From Patescibacteria group bacterium (GTDB taxonomy: Bacteria; Patescibacteriota; Microgenomatia; Curtissbacterales; GWA2-41-24), in NCBI GenBank assembly GCA_038063735.1, contig JBBTUN010000004.1:12111-76110 (forward strand): a DNA stretch of 64,000 bases, read 5' to 3'. Shown piece by piece: positions 34,017-59,846 of the stretch. The notes under the pieces were generated by a model that made no database searches, was not told the origin of the DNA, and was given only the letters and a program-made list of their open reading frames with translations. Positions within the stretch are counted from its first letter, which is position 1. Each line of letters opens with the position of its first letter. A program made the position numbers and the translations under genes.

Positions 34017-35191
34017 GAAAAATATTAGTATTTTTTTCTACACTTTTTATAACCTCAGTTTTTTGCATATCGATTATCCGTGCGGTATCCCTAGAAGATT
34101 GTGAAAAAAATCCGGATAGCAATCTAGGCGATTGTATAAACCTGTTAACCTCAAAAGTAAGCGATTTAACTAGTCAGAAAAAAACCCTCTCTTCCCAAAT
34201 AAGCCAATTCGATACACAACTCAAAATAACACAGTTAAAAATAGCGGATTCCGAAAAAACTATTGCTCTGTTAGAAAAAGAAATAGGAATTTTGGGCTTC
34301 AGAATTGGTTATGTAACAGACTCAATTGATAAGCTTGAGGGGTTGGTAAAGCAAAGAATAGTTGCAACCTATCAACAAAGTTTTGTTTCCGATCTAGAAC
34401 TGGTTGCCGCTTCAAATGATTTCTCAGACCTGATTCTCAGGCTTCAATATATTAAACAAGTTCAGGAAAATGACAAAAAAATCTTGGCAAGTCTCCAAGC
34501 AACAAAAACAAATTATGCAAACCAAAAAGACGAAAGAGAAACAAAGCAAGCCGCAATCGAAGAACAAAAAACTAAACTGGAAGCCTTAAAAATAAACTTG
34601 GATAAACAAAAGACAGAGAAGCAGGCATTTTTAGAGATTACCAAAAACGATGAATCCAGATATCAAAAATTGCTGGCTGAAGCACAAGCAGAGCGGGCAA
34701 TTGTTTTTGGAGGGGGAACGGACATATTTATGCGTGATGTAAAACAAGGCGACACAATTGGATCAGTCGCATCCCACGGCGCAAGCCCGGGCTGTTCAAG
34801 CGGCGCCCATCTTCACTTCGAAGTACACAAAAACGGTAACCTGGAAGACCCAAACAATTATTTAAGATCGGGCGGTTTTAGTTATTCTTATCCCGATTCC
34901 CAATACTCTACTTATGGCACAATTAACCCTCGTGGTGACTTACCATGGCCGCTAAATGAGCCGATAACCATAAATCAGGGTTACGGGTCACACAGCTTTG
35001 CAAAATCATTTTATTACAATGGAATTCATGCAGGTATAGACATGGATTCATCATCAAGTTCTGTTAAAGCGGTAAAAGATGGAAAATTATATGGAGGCTC
35101 TTACAATTGTTCGAAGGGGAAATTATACTACGCAAAAGTCGAGCACAGTGATGGGCTTACAACTTGGTACTTACACATCATCCCCAACTAG
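34013..35191 (+). CDS. M23 family peptidoglycan metalloendopeptidase with N-terminal coiled coil (EnvC/PcsB-like FtsEX partner)
   Basis: Signal/TM sequence, a long coiled coil, then M23 motifs (HLHFEVHKNG, GIHAGIDMD). Overlaps ftsX by 4 nt. Confidence 0.8.
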   Translation: MRKILVFFSTLFITSVFCISIIRAVSLEDCEKNPDSNLGDCINLLTSKVSDLTSQKKTLSSQISQFDTQLKITQLKIADSEKTIALLEKEIGILGFRIGYVTDSIDKLEGLVKQRIVATYQQSFVSDLELVAASNDFSDLILRLQYIKQVQENDKKILASLQATKTNYANQKDERETKQAAIEEQKTKLEALKINLDKQKTEKQAFLEITKNDESRYQKLLAEAQAERAIVFGGGTDIFMRDVKQGDTIGSVASHGASPGCSSGAHLHFEVHKNGNLEDPNNYLRSGGFSYSYPDSQYSTYGTINPRGDLPWPLNEPITINQGYGSHSFAKSFYYNGIHAGIDMDSSSSSVKAVKDGKLYGGSYNCSKGKLYYAKVEHSDGLTTWYLHIIPN

Positions 35192-35226
35192 TTGACAAAA
35201 CTACTACAAATAATTATGGTCATTCT

Positions 35227-36078
35227 ATGCCCAAACAAGTACTAGTTGTACTCGCGTTTTTGTTTTTCTTATTTTTTGCTCCGAAAAATCTCCTTGCAGC
35301 AAACATTACAATAAATGAGTTTTTAGCAGAGCCTGCAGGAGACGAGAAAGAATGGATCGAGATAAAAAGTGATGAATCTGTAGATCTCTCAAATTATTAT
35401 CTTAAAGACAAAGTCGGAACTAAGAAAGATTTAGGCACCATACAGAACTGCGGCAGTTACTATTTGTGGGAGCTATCTGGCGGAGCAGGTTATTTAAATA
35501 ATTCTGGAGAAGAATCAATTTTTCTCTACGACCCACAAGATGCACTTGTTGACTCATACGAAAACTGGACCAACCCTGGTGAAAGCAAAACCTTGAGTAG
35601 GATCCCAGATGGAAATGGAGATTTTCAGGAAGCAGACGTCACGAAATGTGCGCAAAATACTGCTCCGGCAGATCCAACGCCGTCTCCGGACCCAAGCCCT
35701 ACCAGCGCACCTTCGTCAACGACGTCCACCAAGTCTCCAAGTCCAACACCAAAAAGCTCGCCTAAAAGCACTGCAAAATCCCCATCACCTACCCCTAAAC
35801 CATCAACCCAACCCAAAGAATCACCTCAAGTGCTTGGTAAAAATGATATTGCAGATTCAATATCGGCGCTTTCCGGCGATCAATTTTTAAATAGCCCGTC
35901 CCCAAATCCAAACCTATATCAAGCAGCCATAAGCAGTAATCTTGCCATAGTATTTATAGGTGTTGGTGCTGTACTAATTGGACTTTCGTTCGGCATGTAT
36001 TTATGGTACAAAAAAAGTTCAGAAAGACCGGAAATTAGTAAGGAAAAGGACAGATTTGAAGAAAACAAAGAAGAATAA
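35227..36078 (+). CDS. lamin-tail-domain (LTD) surface protein with Pro/Ser/Thr-rich linker and C-terminal TM anchor
   Basis: Signal peptide followed by an LTD core (NITINEFLAEPAGDEKEWIEI...NYYLKDKVG), a low-complexity PTS linker and a C-terminal hydrophobic helix plus basic tail. The start was chosen at ATG 35227. Confidence 0.6.
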   Translation: MPKQVLVVLAFLFFLFFAPKNLLAANITINEFLAEPAGDEKEWIEIKSDESVDLSNYYLKDKVGTKKDLGTIQNCGSYYLWELSGGAGYLNNSGEESIFLYDPQDALVDSYENWTNPGESKTLSRIPDGNGDFQEADVTKCAQNTAPADPTPSPDPSPTSAPSSTTSTKSPSPTPKSSPKSTAKSPSPTPKPSTQPKESPQVLGKNDIADSISALSGDQFLNSPSPNPNLYQAAISSNLAIVFIGVGAVLIGLSFGMYLWYKKSSERPEISKEKDRFEENKEE

Positions 36079-38623: not shown

Positions 38624-38727
38624 CTTCAAAACAATTATAATTACACACTAATAGCTGCGCCGGATGTGCAGTTTTTTATTATGCATTTGCGCGAATTAGC
38701 AGGTGCATATTTTTTTGAGGTGAAAAA

Positions 38728-39192
38728 ATGGCAGTAGAGGTTAAACACATTTGTACCATATCCAAGCACGAATTCAGGCCTAAAATCGTGCCGCCTGGCC
38801 ATCTAAGCATAAAAACATACGAAGATGAACATGGAAACGATTTGGCTGCGTTACACATTCGCTGTAAGCCTTCCGGTGTTGGTGTTGTCACTCCTTTTGA
38901 AAAATTTGGTGAAAGCAATGTCTCCGTCCATATTAAGGATTGGACAAAACCAGACGAACGTCCACTCATCCAGATCACAAGAGAACCGGTTTTAATAAGC
39001 GGCACCCAATACGTTGAGTTGGTTTCTAGAAGAACTACAAGAAGGCTAAGGGCAATGCATGTAGCCGAAAAAGAAACACCCGATAAAACAAAAGAAGCGT
39101 CAGCCGAAGAAAAAGTTGCAGAATTTGTAACAACCCCAAGAGATAGGAAAATCGCAAGTGCTACAAGTTCCCTTCGCGCAAGTTCGCACTGA
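38728..39192 (+). CDS. hypothetical protein (154 aa) with basic disordered C-terminus
   Basis: Strong RBS GAGGTGA 7 nt upstream and a rho-independent terminator downstream. A longer antisense ORF (38679-39218) overlaps it, so the strand choice rests on the RBS and terminator. Confidence 0.45.
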   Translation: MAVEVKHICTISKHEFRPKIVPPGHLSIKTYEDEHGNDLAALHIRCKPSGVGVVTPFEKFGESNVSVHIKDWTKPDERPLIQITREPVLISGTQYVELVSRRTTRRLRAMHVAEKETPDKTKEASAEEKVAEFVTTPRDRKIASATSSLRASSH

Positions 39193-39343
39193 TCCACTTT
39201 CTTACTAATTCGTCCCAATTGACTTAAACTCGGTAAAAAACTTTAATTGCTTTGCGAAGATTTTTGGCCTGCTCAATCGACTCTGCCCAGTCAAAAATCT
39301 AAATGCACTGCCCAAATACTGTATTAATTAAAAAATTAGGACG

Positions 39344-39368
39344 AACCGCATTTGGCGGTTTTTTTTAT
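39344..39368 (+). terminator. rho-independent terminator (AACCGC-attt g-GCGGTT followed by a T9 run)
   Basis: 6-bp GC-rich stem, 5-nt loop and a run of 9 T. It lies between ORF 38728-39192 and the strong RBS of the 39408 gene. Confidence 0.6.
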
Positions 39369-39407
39369 GTTGTTTTCTTAAATTCTAATAAAAAGGAGGT
39401 GACATAA

Positions 39408-39974
39408 ATGATAATTAATTCAAGAATTGCTCTTTCTCTGGCATCGATAGCCGCGGCAGGTTCATTGGTTGCAGGTGCAACCTTTGCCTTCTTTAGTGAT
39501 TCAGGAACAAGCAGCTCTAACTTGTTTAGCGCTGGCACGGTCGATCTTCTTCTCAGCGATGATGACCAAACAAATCTTGAGAATGTGACGGCAACCTTTG
39601 GTTCTGCAAATATGGCACCAGGTGATTGTACGACAGGGACTTTGAACATAAAAAACAACGGTACTATCGCAGCAAACCATGTGGATATTAGCATCACAAA
39701 TTCAAACGATGCTATGGATGATTATCTTAGAATCGACACACTTACCTATGATGCTGTTAATCAACTGCCATCACTTACAGACGGTCAGCCAAACACGCTT
39801 AAGGACTTAGATGACTTAGAAAATGATCCAGCAGCCAACCTAGCCTTAACGGATTTAGGGGTGAATCACCCGCTTGTTATGGGAGTATGTCTAGATGAAT
39901 CAGCACCAGATTCATTGCAGGGCGCAAGTAACGACATGACAATGACGGTTCTTTTAGATCAAGGACCCCATTAA
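39408..39974 (+). CDS. camelysin/TasA-family (peptidase M73-like) secreted protein with SipW-cognate signal peptide
   Basis: Strong RBS AAAGGAGGTGA. The N-terminus AGATFAFFSDSGTSSSNLFSAGTVDLLLS matches the SipW-dependent signal / TasA N-terminal consensus (G.TxAyFSDte...NtFtaGtLdL). An NMAPGD motif lies downstream. Confidence 0.65.
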   Translation: MIINSRIALSLASIAAAGSLVAGATFAFFSDSGTSSSNLFSAGTVDLLLSDDDQTNLENVTATFGSANMAPGDCTTGTLNIKNNGTIAANHVDISITNSNDAMDDYLRIDTLTYDAVNQLPSLTDGQPNTLKDLDDLENDPAANLALTDLGVNHPLVMGVCLDESAPDSLQGASNDMTMTVLLDQGPH

Positions 39975-40073
39975 CTGAATAGAGAGGACAGGCTCTTTAA
40001 AATTTAGTTTAGAAAATTTGCAGACTGGGCGGGAGGTCCTGTCCTAATTCACTCTCGCCCACCTGCTCTTATA

Positions 40074-41435
40074 ATGGAAAAAACGTTTAAGTACTTTAAC
40101 TATTTTTTTGCGCTAATTTTGATTTGCGCCGCAATATTTTTGGCGTATATTGCCGTGCCCTATTTTGGCAACAAAGCACTAATTGTCAAAACCGGTAGTA
40201 TGTCGCCAAAAATTAAAGCCGGCGATCTGGTTATCATCAACGCACAAAAAATACTGCTTACCCCTGCACCCATACCGCTTGCGACATACCACACAGGAGA
40301 CGTCATTGCATTCAAAGACCTAAATAATCCAAATGTACTCATTACTCACAGGATAATAAAAAGCGAGGTAAAAAATAGTGAAGTGTATTTCCAAACAAAG
40401 GGAGATGCCAACAACTCTCCGGATACGGCGCTTGTACCCCAGAAAAATATTATCGGGAAATCTACCTTTACAATTCCGCAATTAGGAAAACTTTTTGCAT
40501 TTGCCAAGACAAAGCAAGGGTTTGCGCTTTTGGTACTTATACCGGCAGTATTGGTAATTCTTATAGAGGTCACAACCCTTATAAAAGAATCAATAAAGAT
40601 ACAGCGTGCCAGAAGAATGCTACAGCAAGACCCTGATGAAAATGTTGAAAAAAGAGAATTACTTGGCCCCATTGGCCTGAGGATATTAATGCCCTTTGTT
40701 GTCGGTTTAATGTTTTTCCACAACACCTACGCATTTTTCTCAGATTCAGCATCTTCTATCAACAATACCTTTACAGCAGCCTCCACCTTTCCATCCCCAA
40801 GCCCAAGTGGCGAAGCAACTCCATCTGCAACCCCAGGTACATCACCTACCCCAACACCATCACCCACAAACATAGCAAATCACTTATTAATCAGCGAGGT
40901 TCAAATTACAGGCGGTCCAGAACACACGACAGAAGACTTCATTGAACTTTACAATCCGACATCGTCAAACATTAGTTTAAACGGATTTAAGCTGGTAAAC
41001 AGAACAACAGCAAGTTTAACTGATAACTCAATCAGAGTATTTACGACGCAAACTATTCCGGCTCATGGATATTTTCTATGGTGTAGTTCAACGAAAGCAA
41101 CCCTAATAACTTGCGATGATTCAACCACTGACACCCTAGCCAATGATGGAAGCGTAGCCATACGACAAGGAGAGCTGAATACTGGGACAATAATAGATGC
41201 TTTGAGTTGGGATTCTTCTGTAAGTTCACTAAAAGAAGGAACAGAATTCTTTCCTAATCCTGGTGCAAATCAGAGCTTGGAAAGAAAAGCCTTCTTGACA
41301 TCAGATGCCGCTTCTATGGCTGGAGCAGACCTCACGAAGGGAAATGGATTTGATACAGACAATAACTCAACCGACTTTATTCTCAAGATCTCATCCGAAC
41401 CACAAAATTCAACAAGTTCAACAGAAACGCCGTGA
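40074..41435 (+). CDS. in-frame fusion of a SipW-type (archaeal-like, S26B) signal peptidase to a SipW-cognate signal peptide, PT-linker and lamin-tail domain
   Basis: Residues 1-175 carry an N-terminal TM, the catalytic-Ser motif KTGSMSP, a conserved ITHRI and a C-terminal TM. This is followed by a basic loop, a hydrophobic stretch and TYAFFSDSASSINNTFTAAST (SipW-cognate motif), then a PSPSPS linker and the LTD core (LLISEVQITGGPEHTTEDFIELYNP...FKLVN). No stop codon separates the parts. Confidence 0.6.
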   Translation: MEKTFKYFNYFFALILICAAIFLAYIAVPYFGNKALIVKTGSMSPKIKAGDLVIINAQKILLTPAPIPLATYHTGDVIAFKDLNNPNVLITHRIIKSEVKNSEVYFQTKGDANNSPDTALVPQKNIIGKSTFTIPQLGKLFAFAKTKQGFALLVLIPAVLVILIEVTTLIKESIKIQRARRMLQQDPDENVEKRELLGPIGLRILMPFVVGLMFFHNTYAFFSDSASSINNTFTAASTFPSPSPSGEATPSATPGTSPTPTPSPTNIANHLLISEVQITGGPEHTTEDFIELYNPTSSNISLNGFKLVNRTTASLTDNSIRVFTTQTIPAHGYFLWCSSTKATLITCDDSTTDTLANDGSVAIRQGELNTGTIIDALSWDSSVSSLKEGTEFFPNPGANQSLERKAFLTSDAASMAGADLTKGNGFDTDNNSTDFILKISSEPQNSTSSTETP

Positions 41436-42481
41436 AACACATAAAATCTAAATTATTTAAAATACTTGCCATAAACCTCTCACTTATTTTGGCAATCAGC
41501 TTTATCGCACCAAAAGCTTTCGATTCGTCAACTGTTCTGGCAATTGGAGATCTTGCAGTCGACTGGGGCGTGCCGGAAGGCAACCCGATATTTACGATCA
41601 CTAATATGGCTCCCGGTCAAACAGAAACAAGAACGGTAAGCGTTACCAACACAGGTTCCGGTATTCGTCCGGTCGGTATCCGTGGAGTCAAAACTTCCGA
41701 AGCAGGCAACATTTCTACTGTTCTTAATATAACCATCAGCCTGGGCGCCACAGACCTTTACGGTGGTACAAGTCCAACCGGCCCCAAAACTCTAGCAAAC
41801 TTCTTCACAGAATCTGCGGGCATTAACGGCATATTTTTATCCAACATCAACTCCGGGCAAACTGTAAATTATATTGTCAAAGTAAATTTCCAAAATTCCG
41901 CAGGCAACGAATTCCAAAATTCACAAGTGATTTTTGATCTTATTATTGGCATTAGCATAGACCTGCCGCAAGAATGCGAAGCAATGCAATTTTCTGGTAG
42001 TCCAATATTTGGCACGTCACAAGGTGACAGCTTAAAGGGCACACCGAATAACGATCTAATAATTGGTTTTGAGGGTGGCGACTCAATCGACGGCAAAGGG
42101 GGAGACGATTGTATCCTTGGAGGCATTGGTGGTGACTCCTTGAAAGGTGGAGAAGGAAATGATTTTGTATTTGGCAACGAGGATCACGACAGCCTCAAAG
42201 GCGGAAGCGGGGTCGATTTATTAGTAGGCGGAGCCGGTCATGATTCTATATACGGAGAAGGCGGTAGTGATAAATTAGTTGGAGAAGACGGCGATGATTC
42301 TCTTCACGGTGGTGGCGGGGACGACGAACTACAAGGAGGGGACGGAAAAGATAGCCTCAAGGGTGGGGGACAAAACGACACATTAATTGGTGGTGCCGGC
42401 TCCTTTGATAGTGCAAACGGTGAAGGCGGTACGGACGTATGCGTTGCTGAATCCGAAAAAAACTGTGAGCTTGACCCCTAA
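41432..42481 (+). CDS. secreted TasA/camelysin-like protein with C-terminal RTX-type Ca-binding GGxGxD repeats
   Basis: Signal peptide with an AFDSST segment and an N-domain motif FTITNMAPGQTETRTVSVTNTGS resembling the camelysin/TasA core. The C-terminal roughly 130 aa hold tandem nonapeptide repeats (GGDSIDGKGGDDCILGGIGGDSLKGGEGNDFVFG...). Confidence 0.55.
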   Translation: MKHIKSKLFKILAINLSLILAISFIAPKAFDSSTVLAIGDLAVDWGVPEGNPIFTITNMAPGQTETRTVSVTNTGSGIRPVGIRGVKTSEAGNISTVLNITISLGATDLYGGTSPTGPKTLANFFTESAGINGIFLSNINSGQTVNYIVKVNFQNSAGNEFQNSQVIFDLIIGISIDLPQECEAMQFSGSPIFGTSQGDSLKGTPNNDLIIGFEGGDSIDGKGGDDCILGGIGGDSLKGGEGNDFVFGNEDHDSLKGGSGVDLLVGGAGHDSIYGEGGSDKLVGEDGDDSLHGGGGDDELQGGDGKDSLKGGGQNDTLIGGAGSFDSANGEGGTDVCVAESEKNCELDP

Positions 42482-42536: not shown

Positions 42537-43289
42537 ATGAAGGGTGTTATTCTCGCCGGTGGTCTAGGTACTAGATTATATCCTCTCACGCACGCAACCA
42601 ATAAGCACTTACTCCCCGTTTTTGATCAGCCTATGATCTATTATCCAATTCAAACATTAACGCAAGCCGGAATCCAAGATATCCTAATTGTTGTTGGGGG
42701 ACCGCACGCCGGCGATTTTATTAGAGTACTTCAAAATGGCAAGGAATTTGGTATCAAGCATCTAGAGTATGCCTACCAAAATTCCGGAGACGGAGGTATT
42801 GCAGACGCTTTAAAATTGGCAGAAAGTTTTGCGGACAAAGACGCAATAGCAGTTATTTTAGGTGACAATTGCACAGACACAGATATTTCCATCGAAGTTA
42901 AAAACTTTAAAGAGGGCGCAGTAATTTTTCTCAAAGAAGTAGACGATCCTGCAAGATTTGGCATAGCACAGCTAGATAAAAACGATAACACAAAAGTAAT
43001 TGGTATAGAAGAAAAACCTCAGCAGCCCAAAAGCAATTTAGCCGTAACAGGAGTCTATATTTACGATAATAAAGTTTTTGACTACTGCAACCAAATAAAA
43101 CCGTCATCTCGTGGCCAGCTTGAGATAACCGATGTTAATAACATTTACATCCAAAAGGGAAAGCTGAGATGGGCTTCGCTTTCTGGTTTTTGGTCAGATG
43201 CCGGAACATTCGAAAGTCTTTACAGAAGCAACGTGTTCTGGGCGCGCAAAATCTTAAAAGACAAAGAAAAGGAATTAACCACTTTTTAA
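42537..43289 (+). CDS. sugar-1-phosphate nucleotidyltransferase (glucose-1-phosphate thymidylyltransferase RmlA-like, short form)
   Basis: GVILAGGLGTRLYPLT...K..LPV N-terminal nucleotidyltransferase signature. Located upstream of rfbB/C/D. Confidence 0.7.
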   Translation: MKGVILAGGLGTRLYPLTHATNKHLLPVFDQPMIYYPIQTLTQAGIQDILIVVGGPHAGDFIRVLQNGKEFGIKHLEYAYQNSGDGGIADALKLAESFADKDAIAVILGDNCTDTDISIEVKNFKEGAVIFLKEVDDPARFGIAQLDKNDNTKVIGIEEKPQQPKSNLAVTGVYIYDNKVFDYCNQIKPSSRGQLEITDVNNIYIQKGKLRWASLSGFWSDAGTFESLYRSNVFWARKILKDKEKELTTF

Positions 43290-43304
43290 CACAATTAATT
43301 AATT

Positions 43305-44318
43305 ATGACCAAAGTTTTAGTAACAGGTGGCGCCGGATTTATCGGCTCAAATTTCATCCGTTATTACATTAAAAAACATCCAAACCACGAAGTAATCAAT
43401 TTCGATAAGTTAACATACGCTGGGAATTTAGAAAACTTAAAAGATATCGATGGATTGCCAAATTATAAATTCACTAGAGGTGATATTGCCAATATTCACG
43501 ACGTCAAAGAAGCAATGCGCCAAGTAGACATTGTAGTAAATTTTGCGGCCGAATCTCATGTTGATAGATCGATTCTTGACCCGGCACCCTTTGTTATAAC
43601 AAATATTTTAGGCACTCAAGTTTTACTGGATGCGGCAAGGCACGTTGGCGTAAAAAGATTCCACCATGTCTCCACTGACGAAGTTTTTGGAGCATTAAAA
43701 TTATCTTCAAAAGAAAAATTTAAAGAAGATTCAAACTATCAACCGAACAGTCCCTACGCAGCATCAAAAGCATCATCTGACCATTTAGTTAGAGCCTACT
43801 GGGAAACATACAAGCTGCCGATAACAATAAGTAACTGTTCAAATAACTTTGGCCCATTTCAACACCCGGAAAAATTAATTTCGCTGGCAATAACTAACCT
43901 GCTGGAGGGAGAAAAGGTCCCTGTTTATGGGGATGGTCAATATGTAAGAGACTGGTTATATGTAGAAGACCATGTTGCAGCAATTGATCTAATCCTGCAA
44001 AAAGGAATAAGTGGCGAAACTTACTGCATTGGTGCAAACAATGACATACCAAATATCAAAATTATTAAAAAAATTCTTAAGATTTTAGGATTGAAAGAGG
44101 ACAGGATCGAATATGTCACTGACAGACCTGGTCATGATAGAAGGTATGCAATAAATGCTGCTAAGATTAAAAGAGAGCTCAAATGGAAGTCTCTATTTCC
44201 TTTTGACGAGGCATTAAAGCTTACCATTATGTGGTATCAAGACCATCTAGCATGGTGGAAAAGTCAAAAAGGAAAAGAATTTCAAGACTATTATCAGCTC
44301 CAGTATGTAAAAAGATGA
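43305..44318 (+). CDS. rfbB: dTDP-glucose 4,6-dehydratase
   Basis: VLVTGGAGFIGSNF Rossmann motif, a YAASK active site and the RmlB-typical length and motifs. Confidence 0.85.
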   Translation: MTKVLVTGGAGFIGSNFIRYYIKKHPNHEVINFDKLTYAGNLENLKDIDGLPNYKFTRGDIANIHDVKEAMRQVDIVVNFAAESHVDRSILDPAPFVITNILGTQVLLDAARHVGVKRFHHVSTDEVFGALKLSSKEKFKEDSNYQPNSPYAASKASSDHLVRAYWETYKLPITISNCSNNFGPFQHPEKLISLAITNLLEGEKVPVYGDGQYVRDWLYVEDHVAAIDLILQKGISGETYCIGANNDIPNIKIIKKILKILGLKEDRIEYVTDRPGHDRRYAINAAKIKRELKWKSLFPFDEALKLTIMWYQDHLAWWKSQKGKEFQDYYQLQYVKR

Positions 44319-44833
44319 ATTACAGTTATTTAAATCTAGAGTCAACTCAGGGAAAAATTGATGGAGTTATCCTGAGAAAACTTGTTGTGCACAAAGACCC
44401 AACCGGCTCACTTGTAGAAACTTTAAGAGAGGATTGGCAGGACGTTTTCAACCCGACTAGCCCATTTAAAATGCAATACATGTCCATTACACCCTCAAAA
44501 GTTGCCAGAGATGAAGATAAATGGCACGTCCACAAGCATCAAAAAGACAGGTTTATATGTGCCTCAGGTAAAATAGTTACGGCTGTTTTCGATCCTCGGG
44601 AAAACTCTCCAACCAATGGTAAGTTAAATTTATTTACAATGGGTCCAAATAATGAGGAGGAAATGTATATGATTGTAATCCCCCAAGAGACATATCATGG
44701 CTTTATGGTTGTTTCTACTGAGCCCGGTTATCTCTTAAATTTTCCGACTCAGCTATACAACTCTAGCGATGAAGGCCGAATAGAAAATAAAGGTGAGTTA
44801 AATTGGCAGAAAGTTAGGGAAGATTTTGGGTAA
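44315..44833 (+). CDS. rfbC: dTDP-4-dehydrorhamnose 3,5-epimerase-like cupin (RmlC family)
   Basis: Cupin fold with a WHVHKHQKDRFICASGK-like RmlC core. The start is an ATG overlapping the rfbB stop (ATGA). Confidence 0.55.
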   Translation: MNYSYLNLESTQGKIDGVILRKLVVHKDPTGSLVETLREDWQDVFNPTSPFKMQYMSITPSKVARDEDKWHVHKHQKDRFICASGKIVTAVFDPRENSPTNGKLNLFTMGPNNEEEMYMIVIPQETYHGFMVVSTEPGYLLNFPTQLYNSSDEGRIENKGELNWQKVREDFG

Positions 44834-45737
44834 TAGTTCAACTAAACTGGCAGTAATTGGTGCAAGCTCCATGGTAGGCTCGCGGTTTTGTGAGCAGCAG
44901 AATAAATTTCCACTTGTTAAAGCTGATTTAAATGGGGAGATTAGCGTCGACTTAACAAAACCGGATTCGCTGGAAGATTTTTTTAAGAAATATGAGTTTG
45001 GGGCGATAATTCTGTTTTCCGCATTTACAGATGTAGACGCGGCAGAAAAAGAAAGAAACAATAAAAATGGTATTGCCTGGAAAATAAACGTAAAAGGGGT
45101 TGAGGAAATTACCCGTCTTTGTAAAGAATACTCGAGAAAACTCATTTTTATTTCTACAGATTTTGTATTTGATGGCGAAAGCGGACCATACGCCGAAGAT
45201 GACGGGATTGGCAAGAATTTAGAAAAAATATCATGGTATGGAATAACAAAGATAAACGCCGAGCAAAAAATTAAAGAATTGACGACTAACTATTTAATAG
45301 TAAGGATAGCCTATCCGTACCGGTCCAGATTTCTCGAAAAAGACGATTTTGCAAAACAAATATTAAAAAAATTTAACGAAGGCACACTCTACCCCATGTT
45401 TACGGATCAAATAATTACACCCACATACATCGACGATATTGAACCGGCAATAAATTTGCTTCTTGAAAAAAACTCTCAGGGAATCTTTCATGTCGCAAGC
45501 CCCACCCCAACAACGCCATTCGCATTTGCCGAAAATCTGCTTACAAAGTTCGGTAAGGACAGTAAGCTCTTAAAAGAAGGGTCGCTCGTTGATCTTTTAA
45601 AAAACAATACTGTTACTCCAAGGCCGGTAAGCGGAGGACTACTGGTTGATAAAATATCCAACTTGGGTATAACACTTGCATCTTGGCAAGATGGGATTAC
45701 TAAAATTTTCGAAGATAGCCAAGGCCAATTGATTTGA
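44826..45737 (+). CDS. rfbD: dTDP-4-dehydrorhamnose reductase (RmlD family)
   Basis: SDR fold (VIGASSMVGS) and the STDFVFDG motif typical of RmlD. Confidence 0.7.
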   Translation: MGNSSTKLAVIGASSMVGSRFCEQQNKFPLVKADLNGEISVDLTKPDSLEDFFKKYEFGAIILFSAFTDVDAAEKERNNKNGIAWKINVKGVEEITRLCKEYSRKLIFISTDFVFDGESGPYAEDDGIGKNLEKISWYGITKINAEQKIKELTTNYLIVRIAYPYRSRFLEKDDFAKQILKKFNEGTLYPMFTDQIITPTYIDDIEPAINLLLEKNSQGIFHVASPTPTTPFAFAENLLTKFGKDSKLLKEGSLVDLLKNNTVTPRPVSGGLLVDKISNLGITLASWQDGITKIFEDSQGQLI

Positions 45738-45775
45738 AAGTATTTTTTTAGCTAAAATAAAACACCACATTTAAT

Positions 45776-47076
45776 ATGACCATAACAATAATAGGAGCAG
45801 GATATGTAGGCTTAGTAACCGCGATACTGTTTGCCGAACTTGGTAACGAGGTGTTTTGCGTTGATATTTCCAAGGAAAGGATCTCGGGACTAAAAAAGGG
45901 TGAAATACCTTTTTTTGAACCCGGACTATCCGAATACATAATTCGAAATAATAAAGAAGGACGTCTTAAATTTACGACAAGTTACAATGAATGTGTCCCA
46001 AAGTCCGATGTTGTTTTTATCTGCGTAGGTACTCCTCCCGGAAAAAATGGTGAAGCTGATTTAACCTATCTTTTCTCGGCGATAGAGGAAACTGCCAGGA
46101 ACCTAAAAGGATACACGCTCATTGTTATTAAAAGTACATTTCCGATTGGCTTTGAGAATGATTTTGAAGAGACAGTCAAAAAGCATGCAAAGGACAAATT
46201 CGAATTCGCAGCATCCCCCGAGTTTCTAAAAGAAGGCACAGCCCTAGAAGATGCATTTCATCCGGACAGAATAGTCATAGGGACAAACAGTCAAAGAGCA
46301 CAAAAATTACTGCTGGAGCTTCACGGTGCCCTGCCAGGTGAAAGAATAATTTGCGATATGCGCTCTGCACAGCTAATTAAATATGCTTCAAATTCATTTC
46401 TTGCAACTAAAATATCTTTCGCCAACGCCCTATCTGTCATTTGCGAAAAAACAGGTGCCGATGTAGAAAAGGTACTTCAGGGTGTTGGGGCAGATAAACG
46501 CATTAATCACGCCTTTTTAAAACCCGGTATTGGTTATGGCGGGTCTTGCTTGCCCAAGGACGTACTGGCATTTATCCACCAGGCAAGCACTTTCGATTAC
46601 AGTTTTGACCTTTTGAGGTCTGTCGATTCAATAAACACAACGCAAATTGATAGATTCATACAAAAAATAAGAGCGGCTCTCAGTGCCCAGGAAGATAAAA
46701 AAGCAAATCTGCAAAATTTCAAAATTGCGATTTTAGGCCTTGCGTTTAAACCAAATACCGATGACATGCGGGATGCCCCGTCAATTAAAATTATTAACGC
46801 ACTTCTTGAATTAAAAGCGGATATAGTCGTATATGATCCGCAAGCAATGGAAAATGCTAAAAAAATTATTAATAATGTCACTTTTGCAAAAAGTATGGAA
46901 GAAGCCATAACTGGTTGTGATGCCATGGTGATAGTTACCGATTGGCCGCAATTTTCCGAACTTGACCTAAGCGAAGTAAAAAAATTACTCAGGAAACCAA
47001 TAATTGTTGATGGACGAAATATTTACAGTAAATTCAAACTGGAAGAAATGGGATTTACCTATTTTAGTATTGGTAG

Positions 47077-47080
<4 letters not shown>
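45776..47080 (+). CDS. ugd: UDP-glucose 6-dehydrogenase family nucleotide-sugar dehydrogenase
   Basis: N-terminal Rossmann IIGAGYVGL, the catalytic-Cys motif GGSCLPKD and a C-terminal UDP-binding domain. Confidence 0.8.
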
Positions 47081-50230
<3,150 letters not shown>

Positions 50231-50249
50231 CCTTTTAGGCCATTTAAAA

Positions 50250-51755
50250 ATGTTTCTCACTACAAAAAGGTTTCAGCAAACGTTAATTATTATTTTAATT
50301 ATTACTGCGGTTTTTTTCCGTTTTTACAAAATTAGGGATCATGTTGTTTTTTTGGGAGACGAGGGACGTGACATGATAGTTCTTAGGAACATTTTTTTAG
50401 AGAAGCGATTACCTTTTTTAGGGCCGTCAGCGTCTGTGGGGGGATTTTATCTAGGACCAATTTATTACTGGATGGCGGCGCCATTTTTGCTCCTATCAAA
50501 ATTTGACCCTATAGGACCTTCGTATATGGTCGCATTGTTTGGTGTAGGTACAGTTCTATTACTTTATAAATTTTTAAAAGAAGCGGTTGGTTTTTGGCCA
50601 GCGGCTTTAGCAAGCCTACTTTACGCAACCGCTCCTTTAATTGTTCGATATTCACGCTCATCTTGGAACCCCAACCCACTGCCGTTTTTTTCTCTGCTTC
50701 TCATATATTTTATTTATAAGGGTATTAAAAGCCAGAAATATTTATTTTTCGTAGGAGCTGGTGCCTGCCTTGGTGTGGCTATTCAGCTTCATTATCTAGC
50801 TTTAGTATTGGCACCACTAGCATTTTTTATAATTCTTTTGAATGAAAAATTTAGAAGAATTCCAGCCATTGCCGCATTGGCATTTCTTGGTTTTTTAATA
50901 ACATTTTCCCCCTTTTTAATATTTGAGATCCGTCATAATTTTCCGAATTTTAGATCAATTTTAGAATTTGTAACAAGAGGTAACACTGTTGGGTACAGCA
51001 AACCAAATTTTATTTGGACGCTTACCGATAACGGGAATATTTTTTTCGAATGGATATCTCAAATAACTGGCACGGTATATACCAGAATTTTATTTTCCAT
51101 TTTAACAGTATCGCTGGCACTGGGAACAATTATTGCCTGGAAAAATAAGGATCATAAATTAATCTTTACCATTGGGGTAATTTACTTTATAGGGGGCATA
51201 TTTTTATTAAGGTCGTACGCTGGCCAGTTGTACGATTATTATTTAGGAAGCATTTTCCCTGCCCCATTTTTTGTTTTCGGGCTTACGGCATTTCTATTTT
51301 GGAAAAACTTGCCATTAAAAATAATAGTTACATCAGCTAGCATTTTAATATTGGGGGCATTTTTAAGTCAGGGGTTTTACACAAAAAAACCAAACATGTT
51401 AATTCTGCAGACCGAATCCATTGCAAATTTTATTATCGATAAAACTGATAATGCGTCTTACAATTTCGCCCTAATCTCAAACAGCAATTCGGATTATGCG
51501 TATAGGTACTTTTTAGATATAAAACATAAAAGCCCCAAAAAATTAGAAGAACTGGTTACGGATCAGTTGATAGTAATTTGTGAGTCGAAAGAGTGTTCAC
51601 CCCTGGGAAATCCCTTGTGGGAAATCGCAGGTTTTGGGCGGGCAGAGATAGATAGTGAGTGGGATCTAGATAAATATGGATTTAAGCTATACAAACTGGT
51701 CCACTTGCCAGGAGAACCAAGCCCTGCCGGGAAGCCAGTAGTAAAAGGTATTTAA
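50250..51755 (+). CDS. GT-C fold membrane glycosyltransferase, paralog of 27050-28582
   Basis: It shares the GDEGRD / GPSASVGGFYLGPIYYW / FEIRHNFPNF blocks with the 27050 ORF and has 11 or more TM helices. Confidence 0.55.
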   Translation: MFLTTKRFQQTLIIILIITAVFFRFYKIRDHVVFLGDEGRDMIVLRNIFLEKRLPFLGPSASVGGFYLGPIYYWMAAPFLLLSKFDPIGPSYMVALFGVGTVLLLYKFLKEAVGFWPAALASLLYATAPLIVRYSRSSWNPNPLPFFSLLLIYFIYKGIKSQKYLFFVGAGACLGVAIQLHYLALVLAPLAFFIILLNEKFRRIPAIAALAFLGFLITFSPFLIFEIRHNFPNFRSILEFVTRGNTVGYSKPNFIWTLTDNGNIFFEWISQITGTVYTRILFSILTVSLALGTIIAWKNKDHKLIFTIGVIYFIGGIFLLRSYAGQLYDYYLGSIFPAPFFVFGLTAFLFWKNLPLKIIVTSASILILGAFLSQGFYTKKPNMLILQTESIANFIIDKTDNASYNFALISNSNSDYAYRYFLDIKHKSPKKLEELVTDQLIVICESKECSPLGNPLWEIAGFGRAEIDSEWDLDKYGFKLYKLVHLPGEPSPAGKPVVKGI

Positions 51756-57464: not shown

Positions 57465-59846
57465 ATGATTAAAAAAATTGCGCCACTAATTTTAATAATT
57501 GTAATAACTCTCCTCGTTTTTTTTAAGATATTTTTTCAGGGATTATACCCATTTCCCGGAGATGCACTGGTGTCTCAAAACTTCCCTTGGTATGCAGGGG
57601 GTTGGACGGGATACGACCCCTGGACAACCTATAAACACGCTGGAGCAGTTGACGCAAACAGAGAACACATACCATGGCATCACTTAACAATCACAAATAT
57701 AAAACAATACGCGACGTTACCCTTATGGAACCCGCATAATTACTCTGGGACGCCTCATCTTGCCAACATCCAAACATTCATTTTCAATCCGATTAACGTA
57801 TTATTTTTATTTCTACCATTTTTCTCTGCTTGGGTTGTCTTCATAATTCTGCAGATGCCTCTAACCATGTTCTTTACTTATTTATTTTCAAGAAGCCTAG
57901 GATTAACAAAAAGGTCAAGTTTCTTTGCAGGATTTGCGTACGTTTTCTCTAGCTATTTTATATTTTGGTATGAGATTGGAATTATTGGAAATACAATTAT
58001 GTGGCTACCTCTAATCTTGTATTCTATCCAAAATCTCCTAACAACTCTAAAAAATAGATACTTATTTTTATTAATAATTGCGTCAACAGCATCCATCTTC
58101 GCAGGCCATATCCAGACGAGCTCATTCATCTTCCTTGTCGCAGTAGCATTCTTTGTATTTCAAGCCTTTTCAATATCCAGTGAGAAGAAAAAATCTGTGC
58201 TACTTCTATGCGCTTGGCTTGTTTCGACCATTTTACTAACCGCAATTCAAACGGTTCCAACAATCGAACTATATATAAATTCCCCTTTGGTCAAACCCTT
58301 TTCTAAAGAAATATTTAATACAGACACCATGCCACTCATAAACCTAATGAGTCTTTTTGCCCCAGATTTTTTCGGAAGCTTTGCTACTAATAACACGTGG
58401 GTCAAGGGTTACGGTGATAGCACTCCAAATATAGGTACGTTGCCACTCCTATTTTCCATTTTCGCAGTATTTAGTGTAAGAAAAAGAGAAGTCAAATTTT
58501 TTTTAATCCTAGCGATAGCATTTCTTCTATTCGCAACAAAAAGCCCCTTATACTTATTAATTAAGAACTTGGGAGTGCCAATTTTGACAGGCACATCTCC
58601 CACACGCACGATATTCGTTTTTTGTTTTAGCTTGTCAATTCTAGCTGCCTGTGGCCTAGAGCAGTTTATAAAATCTAAAAAGCTGAGTAAAAGTTTATAT
58701 TTACTAATATCGATATTTTTTGTGACCTACGGGGCTATCATAGCTTCAACTTTTTTTTTACCGATACTATTAAAAGATCAGAGCATTGGGACTAATTTAT
58801 TAGTAACTAGGAGAAACCTAATAATTCCCTTAACGAGTCTGTTAATTTTGATTTTCGTAATCGTGGTAGGGAAAGTTTTTTCAAAAGCAAAATTTAGAGT
58901 TCGACAAGCACAAATTTATATTATTCTGGTAGTAACACTGCTTGCGGGTATTTACCAATTTAATAAAATGTCACCTTTCTCAAAAGCAAAAGACTTTTTT
59001 CCGGAACACTCTTTAATCAGCTGGCTGCAAGACAATGCCTCAATAAATAGGTTTTATGGAGAGGGAACATCCAGGTTTGATAATAACCTGGCCACCTACT
59101 ATCACATTTACTCGGCAGAGGGTTATAGCGTTTTTAGACTAACCAGATATGCAGAGTTAATGGTATCGCAAGATTCAGGGAAAGTCCCATTAAAATATAA
59201 CCGAGCCGACGCGGAATTTAGTACAGTAAACAGTCACAACAAAAAAAGGCTCTTTAACCTATTAGGTATAAAATATTTGGTCCTTAAAGACGATTTTGCA
59301 AGAGATGCCACAGTAGATGATGTAGGCAAGCCGGAAGACGACGTAAAACTAGCTTGGCAAGAGGGGAAATTTAAAATTTATGAAAGAAACCAGGTATTAC
59401 CCAGGTTCTTTTTATCCTCGGACTTTGTGGTTGCTAAAGATGACCAAGAAATACTAGACAAAATTTATGATGATAACTTTAATCTCCACACAATAATACT
59501 CGAAAAAAGCCCTATTGCCGCATTAAACACATCACCCACTGACCAAGTGGAATTAATAGACTATAAACCTAATACTGTTTCGTTTAAAACAAAAACCGAA
59601 GGTAACACATTATTATTTTTATCAGACACTTTCTATCCCGGATGGGAAGCCAAAGTCGATAATTCCAAAACGGATATTTACAGGGCAGATTATGCTCTGC
59701 GAGCAATCGAAATTCCAAAAGGTGACCATCTAATCACCTTTAGATACAAACCAGTCTCATATTTGTTGGGTCTATACATTACCTTAACTACATTATTAAT
59801 AATGGTTGTATCACTACTATGGTTAATAAAATACAAAAAATTTTGA
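57465..59846 (+). CDS. YfhO-family membrane protein (GT-C-type glycosyl transferase for cell-envelope polymers)
   Basis: 793 aa, many TM helices and a large C-terminal extracytoplasmic domain. The N-terminal FPGDALVSQNFPWY...LPLWNP...GTPHLANIQ blocks are typical of YfhO. Confidence 0.55.
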   Translation: MIKKIAPLILIIVITLLVFFKIFFQGLYPFPGDALVSQNFPWYAGGWTGYDPWTTYKHAGAVDANREHIPWHHLTITNIKQYATLPLWNPHNYSGTPHLANIQTFIFNPINVLFLFLPFFSAWVVFIILQMPLTMFFTYLFSRSLGLTKRSSFFAGFAYVFSSYFIFWYEIGIIGNTIMWLPLILYSIQNLLTTLKNRYLFLLIIASTASIFAGHIQTSSFIFLVAVAFFVFQAFSISSEKKKSVLLLCAWLVSTILLTAIQTVPTIELYINSPLVKPFSKEIFNTDTMPLINLMSLFAPDFFGSFATNNTWVKGYGDSTPNIGTLPLLFSIFAVFSVRKREVKFFLILAIAFLLFATKSPLYLLIKNLGVPILTGTSPTRTIFVFCFSLSILAACGLEQFIKSKKLSKSLYLLISIFFVTYGAIIASTFFLPILLKDQSIGTNLLVTRRNLIIPLTSLLILIFVIVVGKVFSKAKFRVRQAQIYIILVVTLLAGIYQFNKMSPFSKAKDFFPEHSLISWLQDNASINRFYGEGTSRFDNNLATYYHIYSAEGYSVFRLTRYAELMVSQDSGKVPLKYNRADAEFSTVNSHNKKRLFNLLGIKYLVLKDDFARDATVDDVGKPEDDVKLAWQEGKFKIYERNQVLPRFFLSSDFVVAKDDQEILDKIYDDNFNLHTIILEKSPIAALNTSPTDQVELIDYKPNTVSFKTKTEGNTLLFLSDTFYPGWEAKVDNSKTDIYRADYALRAIEIPKGDHLITFRYKPVSYLLGLYITLTTLLIMVVSLLWLIKYKKF

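Follow-up and report, generated by a model that had tools for sequence, protein, structure and literature searches.

A compact three-gene operon for a probable TasA-like surface fibre in Patescibacteria, with a signal peptidase fused to one of its own predicted substrates

In Bacillus subtilis, the tapA-sipW-tasA operon gives rise to TasA fibres, in which TapA supplies the first strand and residues 28-38 of TasA form the donor strand (PMC9674648, PMC10151520), next to the cleavage site TWA/AF (PMC9674648, PMC10269814). An initiator/shaft/terminator logic has already been proposed for archaeal Tafi pili, with TafC as tip and initiator and TafF as terminator and anchor, subunit roles that were only modelled there (PMC11821415). 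Homologs of PF12389 have already been noted in Patescibacteria (PMC9245690), and NCBI already gives generic names to the three proteins described here. These precedents limit the original prediction of a fibre or adhesin system of undescribed composition, since the homologs, the names and the Tafi logic were all known. What stands of it are a fusion of the gene 2 type and a third subunit lacking a donor strand, for neither of which a description was found in the searchable literature. The three-gene module thus varies an established fibre system and does not amount to a novel type of machine.

The locus and its predicted major subunit

The window, that is, the whole stretch of 64,000 nucleotides that was analysed, comes from an ultra-small groundwater Patescibacteria bacterium of Microgenomates type, in which the operon is chromosomal. 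Three consecutive plus-strand open reading frames were confirmed as originally placed, and two non-coding elements accompany them:

39408-39974, + strand: gene 1, 188 aa
40074-41435, + strand: gene 2, 453 aa
41432-42481, + strand: gene 3, 349 aa, GTG start
39343..39401, + strand: terminator-like hairpin and T-run, then the gene 1 Shine-Dalgarno sequence (consensus matches only)
39973..40066, + strand: spacer between genes 1 and 2, folding into two stable RNA hairpins (folding against shuffles)

The GTG start of gene 3 overlaps the gene 2 stop as GTGA. Upstream of gene 1, a hairpin at 39343-39361 with its T-run and a consensus Shine-Dalgarno match, AGGAGGTG at 39394-39401, would mark the start of the module's transcription unit, as read from a scan whose promoter set omits this phylum. 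The spacer folds with a minimum free energy of -34.7 kcal/mol (z = -3.93), a value equalled by none of 200 shuffles, and its hairpins might adjust how much major subunit is made relative to minor subunit, by attenuation or by stabilising the mRNA.

The order TasA-like protein, peptidase, LTD (lamin-tail domain) protein and gene-3-type protein is kept across Microgenomates lineages and recurs in many Patescibacteria. In three lineages the TasA-like gene is followed by a peptidase of 180-190 aa, an LTD gene and a gene-3-type gene; where the two are unfused, the LTD gene comes directly after the peptidase gene and overlaps its stop as ATGA.

Gene 1 is divided as follows:

39408..39488, + strand: signal peptide, aa 1-27, with a predicted SipW-type cleavage site TFA/FF, after TFA (TIGR04088)
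39489..39530, + strand: predicted N-terminal donor strand, aa 28-41, FFSDSGTSSSNLFS (position equal to that of the TasA donor strand)
39531..39974, + strand: TasA-superfamily jelly-roll, aa 42-188, and stop codon (PF12389, AF2, Foldseek)

Family matches were judged against curated cut-offs, and all the families predicted for the three proteins scored above theirs. A SipW-cognate signal and a TasA/camelysin-like body had been read from gene 1, and both are borne out by TIGR04088 (25.4 bits, cut-off 19) and by PF12389 Peptidase_M73 (48.8 bits, cut-off 22.5), of which only the N-terminal half of the model is spanned; the TasA equivalog gives 30.9 bits, far under its cut-off of 450. The TFA/FF site aligns with that of TasA, and its T at -3 and A at -1 are nearly invariant among 44 homologs. 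In the AF2 monomer, aa 28-41 form an extension without structure, at low to medium confidence (block-mean pLDDT 56-71), in which F29, N38 and F40 hardly vary, if at all, in the homolog alignment. The whole model (mean pLDDT 85.3) has the TasA fibre 8AUR as its best Foldseek match in the PDB (E = 3.7e-6) and the AbpA pilus 7UEG as its second. Gene 1 therefore encodes a subunit of TasA fold that carries a SipW-type signal and, where TasA has its donor strand, an N-terminal extension; it is predicted to be the major fibre subunit.

A signal peptidase fused to a predicted substrate

Gene 2 comprises six parts:

40074..40583, + strand: ER/archaeal-type (SipW-like, S26B) signal peptidase, aa 1-170 (TIGR02228, profile comparison)
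40584..40670, + strand: basic loop, aa 171-199, predicted cytoplasmic (hydropathy and charge)
40671..40733, + strand: third hydrophobic segment, aa 200-220, ending TYA (hydropathy)
40734..40778, + strand: donor-strand-type block, aa 221-235, FFSDSASSINNTFTA (HMM of gene 1 homologs)
40779..40865, + strand: Pro/Ser/Thr-rich linker, aa 236-264 (read from the sequence)
40866..41435, + strand: lamin-tail domain, aa 265-453, and stop codon (PF00932)

The N-terminal half is an ER/archaeal-type signal peptidase, matching TIGR02228 (archaeal-type signal peptidase I) at 99.2 bits (cut-off 51.85) and PF10502 at 25.0 bits (cut-off 22.9), while the Bacillus SipW equivalog reaches 104.8 bits, under its cut-off of 190. 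An extracytoplasmic catalytic domain lies between TM1 (aa 10-28) and TM2 (aa 152-170), as placed by hydropathy. The catalytic Ser42, His92 and Asp111 are intact and align with the SipW triad S47/H87/D106 (PMC8767453); the homolog alignment shows no variation at S42 or H92 and at least 90% conservation of D111. The family profile finds SEC11C at 9e-13 (SEC11C/A range 1e-11 to 1e-13) and LepB only weakly, at 2e-3, and SEC11A/C are the best solved relatives. Family searches detected no sortase domain in the three genes, so the label 'sortase-like' that the module had been given falls away. The identification of gene 2 as the SipW-type peptidase holds for this half, but it left out what follows.

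Behind the peptidase come the basic loop, with eight K/R across aa 171-203, the third hydrophobic segment and then TYA/FFSDSASSINNTF, a cleavage site plus donor-strand block as in gene 1 that is invariant in fused homologs. The three hydrophobic segments and the K/R-rich loop fit an out-in-out topology. Unfused peptidases end at the position of the loop, free LTD proteins begin MK or MKK, and the C-terminus of SipW is cytoplasmic (PMC8767453); the loop corresponds to a former SipW C-tail joined to the signal-peptide n-region of the fused substrate. From the sequence, aa 200-220 are predicted to be the h-region of an internal signal peptide with an internal cleavage site, TYA/FF. Among 51 fused homologs, position -3 is S, T, A or G in all and -1 is A or S in 50, as in free LTD proteins, and 44 have an aromatic P2'. 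When an HMM is trained solely on homologs of gene 1, it matches gene 2 at aa 218-235 (E = 2e-6), the next ORF of the window standing at E = 0.46, and D224, S228 and N231 are invariant in 26 fusions of 33-63% identity. This conservation in the fused proteins could also reflect a need other than cleavage.

The linker differs in length among homologs, and the domain behind it matches PF00932 LTD at 40.1 bits (cut-off 34.3) and keeps a conserved extreme C-terminus, SEPQNSTSSTETP. No solved homolog of the LTD was found by sequence search; it is predicted to be a cargo, adhesive or tip module. Free LTD proteins of 250 aa with an N-terminal SipW-type signal are 50-59% identical to the C-terminal half of gene 2, and they show the signal peptide first and then the same motif, at aa 19-27. 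This half is therefore a complete SipW-type substrate, with hydrophobic segment, small -3/-1 residues, FFSD..S..N.F block, linker and LTD. The LTD had been described as a decoration of the module; it is present, but as part of that substrate. In gene 2, in other words, a signal peptidase and a protein that it is predicted to cleave share one reading frame. The combination of peptidase and internal motif is found in 51 of the 120 best matches and in at least 45 of 150 distinct 50%-identity representatives, and the cargo after the motif varies among fusions while the motif is retained.

A predicted third subunit with a TasA fold and an RTX domain

Gene 3 has three parts:

41432..41542, + strand: N-terminal hydrophobic helix, aa 1-37, with a VxA/VGDL-type site, after VxA (homolog alignment, AF2)
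41543..41965, + strand: TasA-superfamily jelly-roll without donor-strand block, aa 38-178 (hhalign, Foldseek)
41966..42481, + strand: Cys-containing linker, RTX nonapeptide beta-roll and Cys-bracketed C-terminus, aa 179-349, and stop codon (PF00353, AF2, Foldseek)

At the N-terminal site, all 44 homologs carry A at -1 and 43 carry V or A at -3; there is no aromatic residue at P2 or P2'. The AF2 model shows a helix over residues 2-29 and, at 27-35, a linker of low confidence; the helix may be a signal peptide that is cleaved off or may stay as a signal anchor. The resemblance of the following domain to gene 1, which had been proposed at the outset, was recovered by hhalign between the two families (probability 98.3%, E = 1.4e-14, 154 columns) and by a Foldseek match of the gene 3 model (pLDDT 90.7) to 8AUR at E = 1.9e-4. 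Neither the window nor the related loci that were fetched held a gene-3-class protein matched by the donor HMM. The jelly-roll is predicted to be a strand-accepting terminal subunit, though gene 3 could donate its own short VGDL N-terminus.

The predicted RTX repeats are confirmed, with PF00353 HemolysinCabind at 86.8 bits (cut-off 23), three-residue strands regularly every nine residues of the AF2 model at pLDDT above 90, and a Foldseek match to the CyaA RTX domain 7RAH (E = 1.2e-4); C182, C227, C337 and C345 are invariant. Gene 3 thus joins a TasA fold without strand block to a Ca-binding beta-roll. The C-terminal domains of its class are interchangeable, being RTX, LTD or FN3, the FN3 form with a membrane anchor. 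In three related loci (L047, L052 and L069) the protein ends in a hydrophobic segment, followed in L052 and L069 by a basic tail; the window's gene 3 has no C-terminal anchor.

Proposed fibre assembly, alternative explanations and related systems

Taken together, the HMM matches, fold comparisons and gene order support the originally predicted dedicated SipW and TasA-type surface module with LTD and RTX parts. As a whole, the locus is best explained, with a probability of roughly 0.6, as a compact operon whose three genes supply four functional modules for a TasA-like surface fibre built by donor-strand exchange, a model drawn by analogy with described fibres. The peptidase would process gene 1 behind TFA27 and, acting in cis or in trans, would also cut its own tail behind TYA220. 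The freed LTD module, now beginning with a free donor strand, would, like TapA in Bacillus or TafC/AbpB in archaea, insert into the first gene 1 subunit and nucleate polymerisation, to end at the distal fibre tip, while gene 1 subunits would form the shaft, chaining strand into groove. Because gene 3 has a groove and no strand to pass on, it would take the last strand and end the fibre, which it may cap or anchor, TafF-like if the N-terminal helix is kept, or via the RTX domain. The fusion would couple one initiator to each peptidase molecule where subunits are processed.

It is also conceivable, if unlikely, that the module makes a plain TasA/SipW matrix fibre and that the LTD stays on the peptidase as an extracellular accessory, for instance in cell-wall or substrate binding, the FFSD motif being the uncleaved relic of a fusion. 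The fusion is indeed one continuous ORF in many lineages, the C-terminal region of SipW-family enzymes can hold extra functions (PMC8767453), dedicated peptidases with added TM or domain content are known (TafD and the AbpX-linked peptidase), and the isolated internal segment has TIGR04088 as its sole family match, at 15.1 bits, under the cut-off of 19. A relic should nevertheless decay, yet small -3/-1 residues persist in 50 of 51 fused proteins and an aromatic P2' in 44, the D/S/N of the strand block stay unchanged even in fusions of 33% identity and match free substrates, and the motif outlasts changes of cargo. That the fusion itself is an assembly or frameshift artefact is extremely improbable: the separate genes overlap by 4 nt in several lineages and a 1-nt error could join them, but the identical 453-aa protein occurs on seven contigs, the three places displayed being three separate sequencing/assembly accessions of the same groundwater site; the 51 fused homologs (33-63% identity) occur in different candidate phyla; and fused forms carry an extra basic loop instead of an abrupt junction.

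For gene 3, a role outside the fibre, as a secreted Ca-binding protein of the surface (S-layer-like or adhesin) that shares the operon and possibly the peptidase and uses its TasA-like domain as a monomeric scaffold, appears improbable. This role would suit the missing donor strand, an ordinary VxA/VG signal site usable by any type I peptidase, and a very large family (1662 matches) with variable C-terminal domains. Against it stand the TasA fold seen by hhalign and Foldseek, the TafF-like C-terminal anchor of some lineages, and the placing of the gene, which in all loci examined follows immediately on the peptidase/LTD genes, commonly with start/stop overlap. The Pfam name and PF12389 match might likewise suggest that genes 1 and 3 are camelysin-type (Peptidase_M73) metalloproteases, secreted enzymes and not structural subunits. 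This is very improbable, as neither gene 1 nor the gene 3 N-domain holds an HExxH or other metal-binding motif, the closest structural matches are fibre subunits, and TasA-like proteins (camelysins) are now treated in the literature as donor-strand fibre subunits.

Among described systems, the RTX proteins of type I secretion (CyaA, HlyA, serralysins) share with gene 3 the GGxGxD nonapeptide beta-roll. Gene 3 as a type I substrate was considered and rejected because it has an N-terminal Sec-type signal, unlike those proteins, and no T1SS ABC transporter, MFP or TolC genes are annotated around the module; its RTX part belongs to a set of C-terminal modules that replace one another. AbpX-type Ca-responsive matrix proteins resemble the module in superfamily, in a dedicated co-located signal peptidase and in calcium, but they bind Ca where strand and groove of the major subunit meet, whereas here a separate RTX beta-roll on a minor, strand-less subunit is the Ca element, and their peptidase has ten TM helices, unlike that of the module. 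The Pyrobaculum bundling pili (AbpA/AbpB; 7UEG) are likewise TasA-superfamily donor-strand pili, in which AbpB is the proposed first-strand giver and adhesin; they differ in having no dedicated peptidase in the operon, other accessory proteins and no fusion.

The Bacillus operon (8AUR, 5OF1) is alike in that an accessory gene is translationally coupled to sipW by stop/start overlap. Here, by comparison, the operon opens with the major subunit gene, and the role of strand-bearing accessory falls to an LTD protein that has no relation to TapA and continues the peptidase reading frame; the strand-less TasA-fold subunit with its RTX beta-roll has no Bacillus counterpart. The haloarchaeal Tafi system (TafA/E pilins, TafC tip, TafD peptidase, TafF anchor) follows the same four-role logic, with a dedicated signal peptidase, a donor-strand shaft, a first-strand tip or initiator and a pilin-like, membrane-anchored terminator that accepts the last strand. 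It is archaeal and Tat-secreted, its components are separate genes, and TafF has a C-terminal TM where the window's gene 3 has RTX, although the TafF layout is shared by the gene-3-class proteins of L047, L052 and L069. The likeness is one of roles, any sequence relatedness being only at superfamily level.

Layout and genomic setting of the module

Three consecutive forward-strand genes had been singled out as a secretion and fibre module, and the three open reading frames are present precisely where they had been placed.

39394-39401, + strand: strong Shine-Dalgarno sequence of gene 1, AGGAGGTG
39408-39974, + strand: gene 1, TasA-like subunit, 188 aa
39973-40066: two stable hairpins in the spacer that separates genes 1 and 2 (MFE -34.7 kcal/mol, z = -3.93, none of 200 shuffles equally stable)
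40074-41435, + strand: gene 2, peptidase with a C-terminal lamin tail domain (LTD), 453 aa
41432-42481, + strand: gene 3, N-domain of predicted TasA fold followed by RTX repeats, 349 aa, GTG start

Because a strong Shine-Dalgarno sequence and a terminator-like hairpin precede gene 1, the module probably begins its own transcript. The GTG start of gene 3 overlaps the stop codon of gene 2 (GTGA), and the hairpins of the spacer may serve as attenuator or stabiliser and so adjust the ratio between major and minor subunits, a structure that could lower the expression of the minor components. Identical proteins in the databases, labelled 'MAG: Patescibacteria group bacterium', are annotated as TasA family protein, signal peptidase I and calcium-binding protein, and the contigs bearing them are from Hainich groundwater metagenomes.

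The surroundings are those of an ordinary chromosome (SecA, Lon, H+-pyrophosphatase, copper ATPase), with t6A genes upstream of the module. A long series of envelope sugar genes lies 3' of it (window 42537-51755 and 57465-61423), including rmlABCD, UDP-glucose dehydrogenase, a PMT_2-type transferase, YfhO and a PTPS-related membrane protein; that the Pro/Ser/Thr linkers of LTD proteins are targets of glycosylation is speculation. A second LTD protein is encoded 3 kb upstream (35164-36078, + strand; PF00932, 41.9 bits), with an ordinary rather than SipW-type signal peptide, a long Pro/Ser/Thr-rich linker and a C-terminal transmembrane segment with basic tail, from which it is predicted to be membrane-anchored. 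Immediately 5' of the module, a 154-aa reading frame (38728-39192, + strand) is overlapped by an antisense frame of 179 aa (38679-39218, - strand); it was dropped as a fourth component because it has no Pfam or NCBIfam match and was not found in the fetched related loci of other genomes.

The word 'sortase' in the original prediction has to be given up, as none of the three genes matches PF04203 and their sequences contain no LPXTG motif with transmembrane tail. No sortase gene lies near the module in the window; among the fetched loci, one occurs near the module only in Roizmanbacteria, where in L087 and L088 a PF04203 sortase (3101-3649, - strand) lies on the strand opposite to the TasA-like gene, about 1.1 kb away. 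In a Levybacteria module (L001, 4964-6457, + strand), a von Willebrand factor A domain (PF00092, 70.7 bits) is joined in one protein to a TasA-like part that has a SipW-type motif; the domain is, by its family, a predicted further adhesive add-on. Complete Microgenomates-type modules are also present in L002 (CAYMOF010000003.1, labelled 'uncultured Candidatus Saccharibacteria') and L003 (CAZBEF010000001.1, labelled 'uncultured Gammaproteobacteria'), and the taxonomic labels of the TPA assemblies behind these two look doubtful.

The TasA-like subunit and the signal peptidase

A SipW-cognate signal and a TasA/camelysin relationship had been proposed for gene 1, and both are borne out by family models above cut-off: TIGR04088, the SipW-dependent-type signal, matches aa 11-45 with 25.4 bits (cut-off 19), and PF12389 scores 48.8 bits (gathering threshold 22.5), although the alignment spans only positions 3-86 of the 196 in the profile. 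The signal peptide ends in TFA↓FFSDSGTSSSNLFSA. An AF2 model (pLDDT 85.3) consists of a beta-sandwich with an unstructured N-terminal extension, and the comparison with TasA that had been suggested returned the TasA fibre 8AUR as the best solved match in Foldseek (E = 3.7e-6, probability 1.0, TMq 0.56), followed by the Pyrobaculum bundling pilus 7UEG. The model thus points to a TasA-like jelly-roll, and the extension, in a single chain, is compatible with a donor strand, the N-terminal strand that is inserted into the groove of a neighbouring fibre subunit. The name 'Peptidase_M73' might suggest a metalloprotease; since the sequence lacks any metal-binding motif and the solved structures it resembles are fibre subunits, this reading was rejected. 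The occurrence of PF12389 homologs among Patescibacteria was already noted in earlier work (PMC9245690).

The N-half of gene 2 had been taken for the SipW-type signal peptidase itself. The type is confirmed by TIGR02228 (sigpep_I_arch, 99.2 bits, cut-off 51.85) and PF10502 (25.0 bits, cut-off 22.9), whereas the Bacillus SipW equivalog NF046067 is missed (104.8 bits, cut-off 190), so that the enzyme is predicted to be SipW-like but no SipW equivalog. Gene 1 likewise stays below the B. subtilis TasA equivalog NF046066 (30.9 bits, cut-off 450), and both proteins are therefore considered members of the respective superfamilies rather than orthologs. The peptidase family profile finds SEC11C at 9e-13 and SEC11A at 1.4e-11 and bacterial LepB only at 2e-3 (about 1e-3), which places the peptidase, at the profile level, in the ER/archaeal type (S26B), nearer SEC11 than LepB. 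Ser42 and His92 do not vary among 26 homologs, at least 90% of which also retain Asp111, and in the NF046067 alignment these residues align, with a constant +5 offset, with the published catalytic triad of SipW, Ser47/His87/Asp106 (PMC8767453). In the window the peptidase adjoins a TasA-like gene, and the same holds for every fetched locus that includes the region 5' of the peptidase.

A predicted substrate fused to the peptidase

Behind the peptidase, gene 2 continues with a Lys/Arg-rich loop, a third hydrophobic segment, a site reading TYA↓FFSDSASSINNTFTA, a Pro/Ser/Thr linker and the LTD.

Gene 2 aa 10-28: TM1
Gene 2 aa 152-170: TM2
Gene 2 aa 171-203: Lys/Arg-rich loop (8 K/R)
Gene 2 about aa 200-216: third hydrophobic segment
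Gene 2 aa 268-379: LTD (PF00932, 40.1 bits)

The LTD had been recognized in the original prediction, rightly so given the gathering threshold of 34.3. What had been overlooked is that the peptidase of gene 2 is apparently fused to a substrate of the kind it would itself process. The predicted topology is consistent with this: the C-terminus of SipW is cytoplasmic (PMC8767453), so the next hydrophobic segment would run from inside to outside, like a signal peptide. Among all six-frame reading frames of the window, a regular expression for the strand block matches only the sites of genes 1 and 2. A donor HMM built from gene 1 homologs alone, with the window's own gene 1 omitted, finds gene 2 aa 218-235 (TYA↓FFSDSASSINNTF) at E = 2e-6, the next reading frame of the window following at E = 0.46; it was used in place of TIGR04088, which is the sole family match of the isolated internal segment and scores 15.1 bits there, below its cut-off of 19. 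The features that render TasA refractory to LepB-type peptidases, an aromatic P2 and an aromatic P2' (PMC10269814), are shared by the site of gene 1 (TFA↓FF) and the internal one of gene 2 (TYA↓FF).

The same C-half also exists as separate genes. These free LTD proteins of about 250 aa are 50-59% identical to the C-half of gene 2 and begin with a signal peptide, after which the same block follows at aa 19-27. Conservation of gene order had been proposed as a check, and an unfused series of TasA-like gene, SipW-type peptidase of 180-190 aa, LTD gene and gene-3-type gene was indeed found in Woykebacteria, Roizmanbacteria and a third lineage; in these loci the stop codon of the peptidase overlaps the start of the LTD gene (ATGA). 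The fusion itself is common: peptidase and internal motif occur together in 51 of the 120 best gene 2 matches and in at least 45 of the best 150 representatives, each from a distinct 50%-identity cluster, another 21 of which combine peptidase and LTD with a more divergent motif. A frameshift or assembly artefact joining two genes was rejected as the origin of the fusion, since it recurs in 51 homologs. Position -3 is Ser, Thr, Ala or Gly in all 51, position -1 Ala or Ser in 50 and P2' Phe or Tyr in 44, the residue pattern that free substrates have at these positions as well. Asp224, Ser228 and Asn231 are invariant in 26 fusions that are just 33-63% identical to gene 2. The cargo behind the motif changes (LTD, divergent LTD, RTX-like and others) and the motif is kept. 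In several library representatives (P0411, P0084, P0335, P0383 and others), the internal donor-type motif precedes non-LTD cargo, including a gene-3-like region with ECSHINF and RTX repeats, which indicates that the design is general and not specific to the LTD.

The evolutionary evidence for a fused substrate is therefore strong at the sequence level. If the LTD stayed on the peptidase, the internal motif would be a relic of a former separate protein, and a signal-peptidase site and strand block would not be expected to be kept so well; from this we infer that the peptidase domain removes the tail, acting either in cis or in trans. The C-half thus reads as a SipW-type site and a donor-strand mimic on a non-TasA domain.

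Some further observations concern the LTD module. Its extreme C-terminus (window 41394-41432, gene 2 aa 441-453) has the consensus SQPQNSSSxxExP, strikingly conserved in the fused and free forms among the aligned homologs of the module. The two donor-strand blocks seem to co-vary within genomes, being of an SDSxxS type in the window and of an SDTETS type in both partners in L001 and L007; this was kept out of the evidence because both partners are available in only about four loci. As the search of genome contigs with the gene 2 alignment was seeded on LTD patterns, about 70 of its 80 loci encode LTD proteins of myxobacteria, Bacteroidota and archaea that are unrelated to the module, and only loci with a peptidase were informative. 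Searching the module against PDB sequences gave nothing useful, and a literature search on bacterial LTD function gave nothing specific.

The predicted strand-less third subunit, a proposed fibre model and known systems

An N-domain similar to that of gene 1, followed by RTX GGxGxD nonapeptide repeats, had been described for gene 3, and both parts of this description proved correct. There is no direct match to Pfam M73; aligning the gene 3 family with that of gene 1 in hhalign (probability 98.3%, E = 1.4e-14, 154 columns) indicates true homology, and the gene 3 model (pLDDT 90.7), in which a helix at the N-terminus is followed by a beta-sandwich (aa 41-174) and a regular beta-roll (pLDDT >90), matches 8AUR at E = 1.9e-4 and also the CyaA RTX domain 7RAH. 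The repeats score 86.8 bits against PF00353 (cut-off 23). Type I secretion is not indicated for gene 3, which carries an N-terminal signal peptide and has rml and t6A genes as neighbours. Four cysteines that flank the beta-roll, Cys182, Cys227, Cys337 and Cys345 (window 41975-42466), are invariant across 44 homologs, which suggests two disulfides.

The strand block is absent from gene 3. TIGR04088 does not match it, the donor HMM matched none of the gene-3-class proteins in the window and the fetched loci, and its site, VLA↓IG, lacks the aromatic P2 and P2'. In the profile alignment, the strand block of gene 1 lies opposite the non-conserved signal region of gene 3, and the conserved part begins at the invariant Ala37 followed by VGDLxVDW, whose counterpart in gene 1 is AGTVDL. 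Gene 3 is thus predicted to be a groove without a strand. In the window and the loci examined, gene-3-class genes are always found 3' of the peptidase/LTD genes, and their C-terminal half is interchangeable; with an FN3-type domain it ends in a hydrophobic segment, followed in L052 and L069 by a basic tail.

C-terminal half of gene-3-class proteins in the window and the fetched loci
RTX: window, L002, L084, L085
LTD: L007, L008, L087
FN3-type domain: L047, L052, L069
None: L001, L003

The families, folds, motifs, fusion, synteny and absence of the strand block from gene 3 are the observations from which a fibre can be modelled. The peptidase would process its own tail as well as gene 1; the strand-LTD set free in this way would prime the first gene 1 subunit and end up at the distal end; gene 1 would build the shaft by chaining strand into groove; and gene 3 would take the last strand and terminate the fibre. 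In the window, gene 3 would be either an anchor, through an uncleaved N-terminal helix or RTX binding to the surface, or a released cap. Gene 3 might instead be an independent Ca-binding surface protein. This reading, like those of a relic motif, a camelysin protease or an assembly artefact, fits the pattern of conservation and synteny less well than the fibre model does; of the four, the independent protein and the relic motif are the more plausible. In its full form, the model holds that the Microgenomates peptidase carries its own substrate in cis, so that one self-cleavage per molecule frees a donor-strand-primed adhesin (LTD or other cargo) which seeds a TasA-like pilus where the shaft subunits are processed; with a strand-less terminator at its other end, the result would be an attachment fibre of defined polarity, requiring neither chaperone nor usher, between episymbiotic ultra-small bacteria and hosts or surfaces. 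This full reading is tentative, with a probability of roughly 0.3.

An attached life on other cells is assumed for Patescibacteria, and to our knowledge little has been reported on their attachment structures besides type IV pili. The module, widespread in Microgenomates, would provide a second, TasA-type fibre with exchangeable adhesive ends (LTD, RTX, FN3, VWA), a candidate for the attachment of these episymbionts. As far as we know, the tapA-sipW overlap of Bacillus has so far done no more than raise the suspicion of a partnership between peptidase and initiator; the in-frame fusion is natural 'Rosetta-stone' evidence that SipW-type peptidases work together with a fibre initiator. In addition, end subunits with only a strand or only a groove offer a testable polarity model for bacterial TasA-superfamily fibres.

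For Bacillota and Archaea, donor-strand fibres of the TasA superfamily that have a dedicated signal peptidase are established. A search of the accessible literature found no description of a peptidase-substrate fusion, a strand-only LTD module or a strand-less third subunit. In B. subtilis, SipW cleaves TasA at TWA↓AF, and residues 28-38 of mature TasA, the deletion of which abolishes fibres, are the donor strand for the next subunit (PMC9674648). TapA, whose fold is unrelated to TasA and whose N-terminal strand, located behind a SipW site of its own, is similar, nucleates TasA assembly by strand donation (PMC9674648, PMC10151520). The tail of gene 2 likewise bears a TasA-type site and strand on a foreign domain and is TapA-like by this logic; it differs in being no TapA homolog, as no TapA family of Pfam or NCBIfam matches the C-half and its domain is the PF00932 LTD, so that it may work like TapA without being a family member. 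In the Tafi model, where the roles of TafC and TafF are themselves only modelled, TafC at the tip gives the first strand, and TafF takes the last pilin strand and anchors the fibre (PMC11821415, PMC12337348); the layout of haloarchaeal TafF is that of the gene-3-class proteins with FN3-type domain in L047, L052 and L069.
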